Assembly: GCA_963810095.1 (NCBI GenBank)
Contig: CAWEMM010000006.1
Location: forward strand, 1,792,001 to 1,856,000
Origin: an uncultured Chloroflexia bacterium
GTDB lineage: Bacteria; Chloroflexota; Anaerolineae; CG2-30-64-16
Length of the DNA: 64,000 bases
Reading direction: 5' to 3'
Shown here: positions 1-832 of the stretch, one piece after another
How positions within the stretch are numbered: the stretch's first letter is position 1
Layout of the letters: every line of letters starts with the position of its first letter
Notes under the pieces: model-generated
Told to the model about the DNA's origin: nothing
What the model saw: the letters and a program-made list of their open reading frames with translations, nothing else
The model's database searches: none
Translations under genes and position numbers: made by a program

Positions 1-713
1 GTCCCCTTGTAGTCAAAGGTCGGGGTCGTCTCGTGGCCGTCACACCAGGCCTGCACGCGCTTCGCGGCCACCCGGTCCTTGGAGATATCGATCTCCTTGT
101 ACGGAATGCCGCGCTCCTTCAGCCAGACGCGCGCCTGCTTGCAGTCCTGGCACCAGGGCGTGCAGTAGATGATCAGGTCGACGTCGGGCCGGGGCTGCTC
201 CCAGGCCATCTTCTCGAGTTTCTTCTGCTCGGCGGCAACCCGTTCGGCAGCTTCCGGCTCGAGGTCGGCCAGCACCTTGAAGATCTCTTCGTTGTCCGGC
301 TGGTCGCCGATGTCGTGGACGTCCACATACCGGACGACGCCATCCTTGTCGATGATAAAGATGGAGCGTTCGGAGTAGCCTTCCCCGCGCAACACGCCGT
401 AAAGCTGCGACACCTGCCCGTGGGGGAAGAAGTCGCTCAACAGCGGGTAGGTGATCCCGCCGAGGCTTTCGGCCCACGCCTTCAGACAATCTGCACTATC
501 CACGCTTAGGCCCAAGACCTGGGCCTTCATCCCGTTGAACCGGGCCAACTCGGCCTGGTATGACGGGATCTGCGCCGTTCAGACGGGGGTCCAGGCGAGG
601 GGGAAGAACACCATCACAACATTCTGGCCGCGATAATCGCTCAGGCTGACCTCGTGACCGAGGTGGCTCTTCAGCCTGAACTCAGGCGCGACCTGTCCGA
701 CCTTAACTGTCAT
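1..713 (-). CDS. Peroxiredoxin (AhpC/TSA family) fused to a C-terminal glutaredoxin/NrdH-like domain; probable selenoprotein (in-frame TGA at 579-581); 3' end runs off the window
   Basis: Manual translation from ATG 713 (RBS AAAGGAGAGG): MTVKVGQVAPEF...FFPLAWTPV[TGA]TAQIP...LSVDS...LLSDFFPHG...SERSIFIIDKDG...YCTPWCQDCKQAR. TGA is codon 45, at the peroxidatic Cys position of the PxxxTxxC motif, and the frame stays open afterwards. Confidence 0.9.
529..569 (-). promoter_or_regulatory. Candidate bacterial SECIS hairpin
   Basis: Begins 9 nt after the UGA: AUCCCGU..ACC-A-GGCCG-AGU-UGGCC-C-GGU..ACGGGAU, a nested stem with a small G-containing apical loop. Confidence 0.7.
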
Positions 714-832
714 AGGCCTCTCCTTTGCTGCTAGAAACGCACTTACGGCGCGCCGGGGCTGTTATCGCCCGGCTCAAATACCGGGCAAAAGCCGACCATC
801 GCGCACGCGTTGTAGAAACCTGCGCCGATGTC

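Follow-up and report, generated by a model that had tools for sequence, protein, structure and literature searches.

The first 713 nucleotides of the DNA analysed here carry, on the minus strand, most of a gene which joins an AhpE-like peroxiredoxin (Prx) to a glutaredoxin (Grx)-like domain and which possesses an in-frame TGA at the position of the peroxidatic cysteine. The stretch, hereafter called the window, is 64,000 nucleotides long and derives from an uncultured Chloroflexia bacterium of the Anaerolineae (assembly GCA_963810095.1, contig CAWEMM010000006.1, positions 1,792,001 to 1,856,000). With a probability of roughly 0.93 we consider this to be a real selenoprotein gene, in which UGA-45 specifies selenocysteine (Sec) with the aid of a signal within the coding part of the messenger. 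The gene, its TGA and the conservation of that codon, two RNA hairpins with covariation downstream of it, and a Sec machinery in the same genome were all observed. From these sequences we infer that translation continues past the UGA and that selenium is incorporated at codon 45.

The gene comprises 255 codons, the last 18 of which lie with the stop codon in the flanking genome, 1–57 nt before window base 1; this terminal stop is a second TGA, located 55–57 nt before that base. Forty-four sense codons ending in FFPLAWTPV precede the first TGA (581-579), after which the frame remains open to the first base of the window. The initial annotation stated that the track of open reading frames (ORFs) misses the gene owing to the TGA at codon 45 (579-581), and the ORF listing does indeed break it in two, a 44-amino acid piece (579..713) and a 182-amino acid open-ended piece (3..548). 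It also placed the TGA, which follows FPLAWTPV, at the position of the peroxidatic Cys. The best sequence match among solved proteins, Mycobacterium tuberculosis AhpE (E 1e-27), bears this out in that U45 aligns with the active-site Cys of its FPLAFTGIC motif.

Of 24 further genomes belonging to this family 22 carry an ortholog, with identities of 62–89% and exactly one TGA each, and the TGA falls in the same column in 23/23 family orthologs. When 151 genomes of the class were sampled there were 11 full-length fused matches, each containing one TGA, and a Cys-form query of a 401-genome sample of the phylum gave five matches, every one with TGA; no DNA for a Cys-form fusion was recovered from these 401 genomes with that query. 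Matching public records bear the titles of Anaerolineae or Anaerolineales metagenome-assembled genomes. Overall, genome and metagenome loci provided 109 distinct TGA forms. Alternation of Cys and Sec among homologs had been suggested as a check, and Cys and TGA do alternate at this column. Among 63 full-length database homologs residue 45 is Cys in 45, Trp in 15, Gly in two and Arg in one, with the Trp and Gly probably arising from gene calls made under codes in which TGA is a sense codon. Codons 32–44, upstream of the TGA, differ chiefly at their third positions, the pairwise differences per site being 0.064 at the first, 0.047 at the second and 0.319 at the third; across genera, purifying selection acts on the gene before as well as after the TGA.

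Past the TGA the frame keeps its Prx motifs, as had been claimed. The AhpC/TSA domain (PF00578) covers residues 5–130 at a score above the Pfam threshold, the P-x3-T/S-x2-C/U motif is present, and P38, T42 and R116, the conserved Arg, are invariant in 64/64 sequences of the alignment. An AlphaFold model derived from these 64 sequences (mean predicted local distance difference test, pLDDT, 93.5) adopts a Prx fold; its top matches in the PDB are all peroxiredoxins and the best is again M. tuberculosis AhpE, with a target-normalised template modelling (TM) score of 0.93 and a root-mean-square deviation (rmsd) of 1.3 Å. Since AhpE is the closest of the solved Prx structures by both sequence and fold, at 37–38% identity, the domain may be described as AhpE-like. 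The PrxU equivalog NF040737, which represents the Sec-peroxiredoxin of the Eubacterium acidaminophilum type, was not reached (72 bits, NCBIfam cut-off 270). The fused C-terminal domain passes the general Pfam Glutaredoxin model only, and no NCBIfam equivalog; its scores against mycoredoxin (TIGR02200, 53.3 bits) and the YruB family (TIGR02196, 50.7 bits) fall below the NCBIfam cut-offs of 89.5 and 88.55, respectively. Of its three cysteines C188 occurs in 64/64 sequences, and C184 and C191 in 62/64 each. A further cysteine, C76, is kept in 54/64 and sits on helix 74–83 of the predicted model.

The predicted product is a 255-amino acid enzyme. Its AhpE-type Prx domain would use Sec as the peroxidatic residue, within P-x3-T-x2-U and together with Arg116, and a helical linker would connect it to the Grx-like CxxC domain. 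The selenolate would reduce a hydroperoxide and become a selenenic acid, which a thiol, either C76 or C188 of the fused domain, may resolve; from the CxxC domain the oxidation would then pass to a cellular reductant. In some BCP-type peroxiredoxins the resolving Cys is located on helix alpha-3, the helix on which C76 sits.

The genome (6.13 Mb in 16 contigs, 88.5% complete) contains selA, selB, selC and selD, the set of genes for which a search had been proposed. The tRNA-Sec scored 72.6 bits and is typed by ARAGORN as SeC with anticodon tca, while selA, selB and selD each exceed their curated cut-offs in profile searches of the genome. The selB gene lies about 47 kb from the window, and selD (C6:1337268-1338194, plus strand) carries a Sec-TGA of its own in the context CAG-U-ASK. 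The selA gene (C2:182884-184214) is read in two frames owing to a single indel near position 183,690, its match covering model positions 2–453 of 455. The break is probably an assembly error, because an fdhA gene is fragmented here too yet intact in relatives, where its orthologs are 949–1023 amino acids long versus an open frame of 443 here; since this fdhA is broken into three frames, indel errors would seem to be frequent in this assembly. There are five further TGA-containing selenoprotein genes, namely selD, two fdhA genes and two Prx-like genes with a UxxC motif, and in the two Prx-like genes, the second fdhA and selD a hairpin with a G-U-containing loop occurs 19–33 nt past the TGA. A UGA aligned with a redox-site Cys, its conservation across genomes, a stem-loop past the UGA and the presence of selA, selB, selC and selD characterize a bacterial selenoprotein gene, and each of these is found here. 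The assertion that the organism recodes UGA as Sec is thus supported by the machinery, by the Cys/TGA alternation and by the conservation among orthologs.

The RNA downstream of the TGA was studied in a comparison set of 109 distinct TGA forms (102 of them fusions in the energy comparisons below), eight distinct Cys fusions from a metagenome scan and five stand-alone Cys relatives. The initial annotation described a hairpin beginning 9 nt past the TGA, with AUCCCGU/ACGGGAU and ACC/GGU stems, and this structure, here called hairpin 1, is present at 569-529. Its third, upper stem is GGCC/GGCC (4 bp), the apical loop starts 27 nt after the UGA, and the minimum free energy (MFE) of the 41 nt is -22.2 kcal/mol. 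A 76-nt context gave a z-score of -2.21, and 3 of 200 shuffled sequences folded equally well, so that hairpin 1 alone is only moderately unusual for GC-rich DNA. Its reality rests on comparison with relatives. All 23 family orthologs fold into the same three-part structure with the loop starting 26–30 nt after the UGA. In these orthologs the basal-stem pair 24/54 is found as GC, AU, UA, GU, UG and CG; in the wider set of TGA forms the basal stem covaries, for example, as AUCCCG/CGGGAU, AUUCCG/CGGAAU and AUGCCC/GGGCAU, with the 3' arm shifting by 1 nt between groups. The apical loop is variable, more than 25 different loops having been recorded. The mean MFE is -17.8 kcal/mol in 102 TGA fusions versus -5.7 in the 8 Cys fusions. 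RNAalifold additionally drew a 3-bp mini-helix, CUG/CAG, between window positions 582-580 and 572-570 (alignment columns 6-8/16-18), in which the U and G of the UGA itself would be paired and which is too short to judge. An Rfam scan of window positions 400–800 with E values up to 10 matched no family of the selenocysteine insertion sequence (SECIS); the sole match, DUF3268 RNA on the other strand, scored 16 bits where the cut-off is 65 and was dismissed.

Directly 3' of hairpin 1, and partly outside the span of the initial annotation, RNAalifold reported a second hairpin. Hairpin 2 reads CCCA-GGUCU-UGGG, and the distance from the UGA to the start of its loop is 59 nt. Over the 109 TGA forms 98.3% of cells in its stem are paired, and the changes are compensatory: pair 63/79 is UA in 58, GC in 30, UG in seven and CG in four, and pair 64/78 is GC in 73 and AU in 32. 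The former pair joins the last base of one codon to the initial base of a codon for Leu, Ile or Val. Eight of eight pairs form in 89 of the TGA fusions and seven of eight in 12, versus four to seven of eight in the Cys fusions; the loop is GGU-YY in 102/102 TGA fusions. The mean MFE (22 nt) is -11.2 kcal/mol in the 102 TGA fusions and -2.7 in the 8 Cys fusions. The latter lack hairpin 2, and the Cys forms retain neither CAG-GUN nor Val at the place of its loop. When MFE structures were computed for the 109 TGA forms both hairpins appeared in 102, hairpin 2 alone in six and hairpin 1 alone in none. On this comparison of sequences both hairpins are specific to the TGA forms.

Three stand-alone Prx genes without a Grx domain (L058, L059 and L064), from records titled Clostridia, Chloroflexota and Deltaproteobacteria, also keep the TGA, and hairpin 2 is present in 3/3. 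The strongest case is L064, in which all eight pairs form and a compensatory change of C-G to U-A has occurred. Since these genes retain hairpin 2, the layout with two hairpins extends beyond the fusion and beyond the Anaerolineae.

The hairpin of the initial annotation had been equated with the SECIS. That it is real and specific to Sec forms has stood; the equation itself is less secure, in that its loop is not conserved and the second hairpin possesses the SelB-type loop. Within the same family the fdhA gene provides a standard: in 19/19 distinct TGA orthologs a spacer of 12 nt leads to a 6-bp stem with compensatory changes, and the loop, GGUCU, begins 18 nt after the UGA. The hairpin of selD, GCGCA-GGUCC-UGCGC, has its loop closed by an A-U pair as judged by eye. 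The loop of hairpin 2 is identical to that of the 19 fdhA genes and resembles the GGUCC of selD. If the 41 nt of hairpin 1 are subtracted the distance from the UGA to the loop of hairpin 2 is 9+2+7 = 18 nt; the alternative register gives 19 nt. Because hairpin 2 has the same loop as fdhA and a folded path of about 18–19 nt, we favour it as the SelB site. E. coli SelB requires a loop G-U and a fixed spacing of 11 nt, and the SECIS loop of Moorella is of the GGUC type.

A ribosome starting at ATG 713 would, on arrival at UGA-45, meet an in-ORF SECIS that recruits SelB with Sec-tRNA(Sec), so that Sec is inserted and termination avoided. GGUCU of hairpin 2 is the predicted SelB-binding loop; hairpin 1 would act as a stable structured spacer whose folding brings hairpin 2 to the usual distance. 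That the element is bipartite in this sense, with hairpin 2 binding SelB and hairpin 1 serving as spacer, we regard as somewhat the better supported interpretation of the alignments. The broader proposition, that in this Sec-peroxiredoxin family the SelB stem-loop has been displaced by 41 nt by a hairpin with a variable loop and that the linear spacing requirement is satisfied through RNA folding, we would put at even odds.

Hairpin 1 alone might instead bind SelB as an ordinary single-hairpin SECIS, leaving hairpin 2 as an accessory or as an unrelated conserved mRNA structure concerned, for instance, with stability or pausing. We consider this possible but distinctly less probable. It gains from the published model of the bacterial SECIS (bSECIS), which we scripted as worded in a figure legend of PMC13188914: a loop of 3–9 nt, an upper stem of at least 4 bp, a G in the first two loop positions, a distance of 16–37 nt and an MFE of -7.5 kcal/mol or lower. 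Hairpin 1 of this genome, with its 5-nt loop GAGUU that begins with G, upper stem of 4 bp, distance of 27 nt and MFE of -22.2 kcal/mol, fits that legend throughout. Its loop also contains AGUU, resembling the AGUU loops past the TGA of the two Prx-like genes, and hairpin 1, too, is specific to Sec forms and shows compensatory changes. Its loop, however, is not conserved: only 37 of the 109 MFE folds of TGA forms agree with every one of these rules, and in 6 of the 23 family orthologs neither of the two leading loop positions is a G, whereas fdhA has one and the same loop throughout this family. Moreover, a SECIS consisting of hairpin 1 leaves unexplained the GGU-YY of 102/102 fusions and the forced Gln(CAG)-Val codons.

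A number of points weigh against assigning SelB binding to hairpin 2, or more generally against our interpretation of the gene. The loop of hairpin 2, at 59 nt from the UGA, lies outside the 16–37 nt given in the legend of PMC13188914, the very model which hairpin 1 satisfies, and its GGU overlaps the Gln-Val codons. A covariance model of 12 fdhA hairpins matched hairpin 2 weakly, in 2/23 ortholog loci (9.9 bits, E about 5); it matched hairpin 1 in 0/23, the model being short, with a nearly fixed stem, and of low power. There are few Cys controls (8 fusions and 5 stand-alone genes), and the GC content of the region, 0.47 in Cys fusions versus 0.58 in TGA fusions, is a confounding factor. The sequences compared are kin and as such not independent, selA as assembled contains one frame break, and the genome is 88.5% complete. 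The review also points out that not every bSECIS element conforms to the model (PMC13188914).

Three other explanations of the TGA carry next to no weight. A substitution error in sequencing or assembly, the true codon being TGC or TGT, might be entertained for an assembly with frame breaks in selA and fdhA, and had been called unlikely at the outset; it is excluded, for practical purposes, because every one of the 22 same-family orthologs, which come from independent genomes, retains the TGA, and it recurs in the 109 distinct sequences overall. Codon 579-581 is also spanned by a contig from a DNA run, belonging to a relative about 93% identical (34-977, 64 differences), and by one from an RNA library (metatranscriptome; 550-680), neither of which has a change at 579-581 among the rows listed; these are assembled contigs, with shares of at most 0.42, and are not tied to the source sample. 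Inactivation of a Cys-peroxiredoxin by a nonsense mutation has in its favour the stop codon itself and nothing further, and such a pseudogene is scarcely compatible with purifying selection on either side of the TGA across genera, with invariant catalytic Pro, Thr and Arg, or with conserved RNA hairpins that accompany the TGA forms only. That the genome as a whole reads TGA as Trp or Gly (codes 4 or 25) rather than Sec, as the database calls with W (15) or G (2) at column 45 might suggest, is equally improbable, given that the gene itself ends at a TGA where its homologs end, that 11 of 35 window ORFs of at least 300 amino acids end in TGA, that homologs carry Cys and never a functional W or G at the catalytic column, and that tRNA-Sec and selA, selB and selD are present in the genome.

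Table 1. Coordinates of the selenoprotein gene, its parts and related genes (window positions unless a contig is named)
Feature	Position	Strand	Basis or remark
Selenoprotein gene, fusion of AhpE-like peroxiredoxin and Grx-like domain	713..1 plus 57 nt beyond	minus	translation with TGA=U, Pfam
Shine-Dalgarno-like AAGGAG	720..725	minus	6 nt ahead of ATG 713-711, read from sequence
Start codon ATG	713-711	minus	read from sequence
Peroxiredoxin (AhpC/TSA) domain, residues 5-130	324..701	minus	Pfam, 131.5 bits vs cut-off 26
In-frame TGA, codon 45, predicted Sec codon at peroxidatic position (P38-x3-T42-x2-U45)	579..581	minus	ortholog and homolog alignments
Hairpin 1, 41 nt, three-part stem, apical loop GAGUU	529..569	minus	folding and covariation
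Hairpin 2, 7-8 bp stem, loop GGUCU (519-515)	508..526	minus	RNAalifold, covariation
Glutaredoxin-like domain, residues 181-232, C184 and C188-x-x-C191	18..173	minus	Pfam, 41.8 bits vs 22.9
fdhA, ARL-U-HS	C10:75611-77796		three frames in assembly, open frame 443 aa
Second fdhA, ARV-U-HS	C9:671923-672657	plus	Sec-TGA
Prx-like gene, U-P-H-C motif	C2:299465-299839	minus	Sec-TGA
Prx-like gene, U-P-H-C motif	C8:61578-61958	plus	Sec-TGA

On its downstream side the selenoprotein gene is convergent with a probably queA-like ORF and with the end of a probably ruvB-like one. In the region of the interdomain linker the contig of the 93%-identical relative has a 1-nt insertion after window position 229 and a 1-nt deletion at 249; the pair shifts about seven codons and is due to strain variation or else to an error in the contig. 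In one relative (G013) the fdhA ortholog (L189) has TGC, specifying Cys, at the Sec column and retains the hairpin with the GGUCU loop. It appears that Sec was recently replaced by Cys there and that the SECIS has stayed behind as a relic.

The gene has fared poorly in annotation. Half of the listed homologs (60/120), as well as the window's own gene call, cover at most 77% of the query, and all but one of these short calls are 179–206 amino acids long and start past the TGA. Close homologs are called as N-terminally truncated proteins of about 190–200 amino acids, several under the names "glutaredoxin" or "arsenate reductase-like glutaredoxin". Since the truncated calls start past the TGA, the catalytic half is missing from the protein databases, and a widespread peroxidase of Anaerolineae-type bacteria is systematically miscalled. 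The selenoproteome of this lineage would comprise at least six genes, and selenium would be built into a protein that unites peroxidase and reductase in a self-contained fusion. Should hairpin 2 prove to be the SelB site, SECIS predictors built upon a distance of 16–37 nt would be describing the wrong element for the Sec-Prx family, and the spacing that bacterial Sec insertion demands would be less strict than assumed. Such latitude would be useful in selenoprotein engineering, because the SECIS would then constrain fewer of the codons adjacent to the active site.

Among known systems the nearest in structure is AhpE of M. tuberculosis (Rv2238c; PDB 1xxu, 4x0x, 5id2), a 1-Cys peroxiredoxin with which the selenoprotein shares the FPLA-x-T-x-x-C context. 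The mycobacterial enzyme differs in that it contains Cys rather than Sec, is a stand-alone protein of 153 amino acids and has Thr where the selenoprotein family has C76. It is reduced by mycoredoxin-1 with mycothiol, and the title of one of the PDB entries matching AhpE mentions mycothiol; reduction by a separate redoxin thus parallels the redoxin domain which is fused here. The Prx5-Grx hybrid of Haemophilus influenzae (PDB 1nm3) likewise has a Prx followed by a Grx domain in one chain, and aligns over both (rank 32). Its peroxiredoxin, however, is of the Prx5 and not the AhpE type, uses Cys, and shares 22% identity with the selenoprotein. The rmsd is 11.7 Å over 262 columns, and the arrangement of the domains therefore differs.

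In PMC13188914, PMC1794560, PMC1088965 and PMC2398784 the Sec-peroxiredoxin with a TxxU motif (PF00578) is treated as an established prokaryotic selenoprotein family, abundant in bacteria. PMC1794560 credits the Chloroflexi with three selenoproteins as of 2006, and PMC2398784 describes a fusion of Sec-Prx to a PP2C-like phosphatase, the one Sec-Prx fusion encountered in these papers. Like these TxxU proteins, ours has an AhpC/TSA domain, the sequence T42-P-V-U45, widespread Cys homologs and a stem-loop within the ORF past the UGA; unlike them, it combines an AhpE-like Prx with a C-terminal Grx-like CxxC domain, has two conserved hairpins and scores below the PrxU cut-off. As for the bSECIS consensus, again as given in PMC13188914, it consists of a stem-loop within the ORF shortly past the UGA, the small loop having G followed by G or U; hairpin 1 of this genome fits all four constraints and hairpin 2 fits those on loop, stem and energy. 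The element departs from that consensus in that the hairpin with the G-G-U loop is situated 59 nt from the UGA, with a 41-nt variable-loop hairpin in between. From a literature search, conducted mostly without subscription journals and supplements, no account emerged of an AhpE-type Prx-Grx fusion with Sec, of Anaerolineae selenoproteins or of a bacterial SECIS with two hairpins; the supplementary tables of PMC1794560 and PMC2398784 contain single Sec-Prx sequences and SECIS alignments which may be relevant to this. The gene belongs, then, to the known TxxU kind of Sec-peroxiredoxin, to which it adds an uncommon domain fusion, and its two-hairpin recoding element has the appearance of a hitherto unreported variant of the bacterial SECIS.

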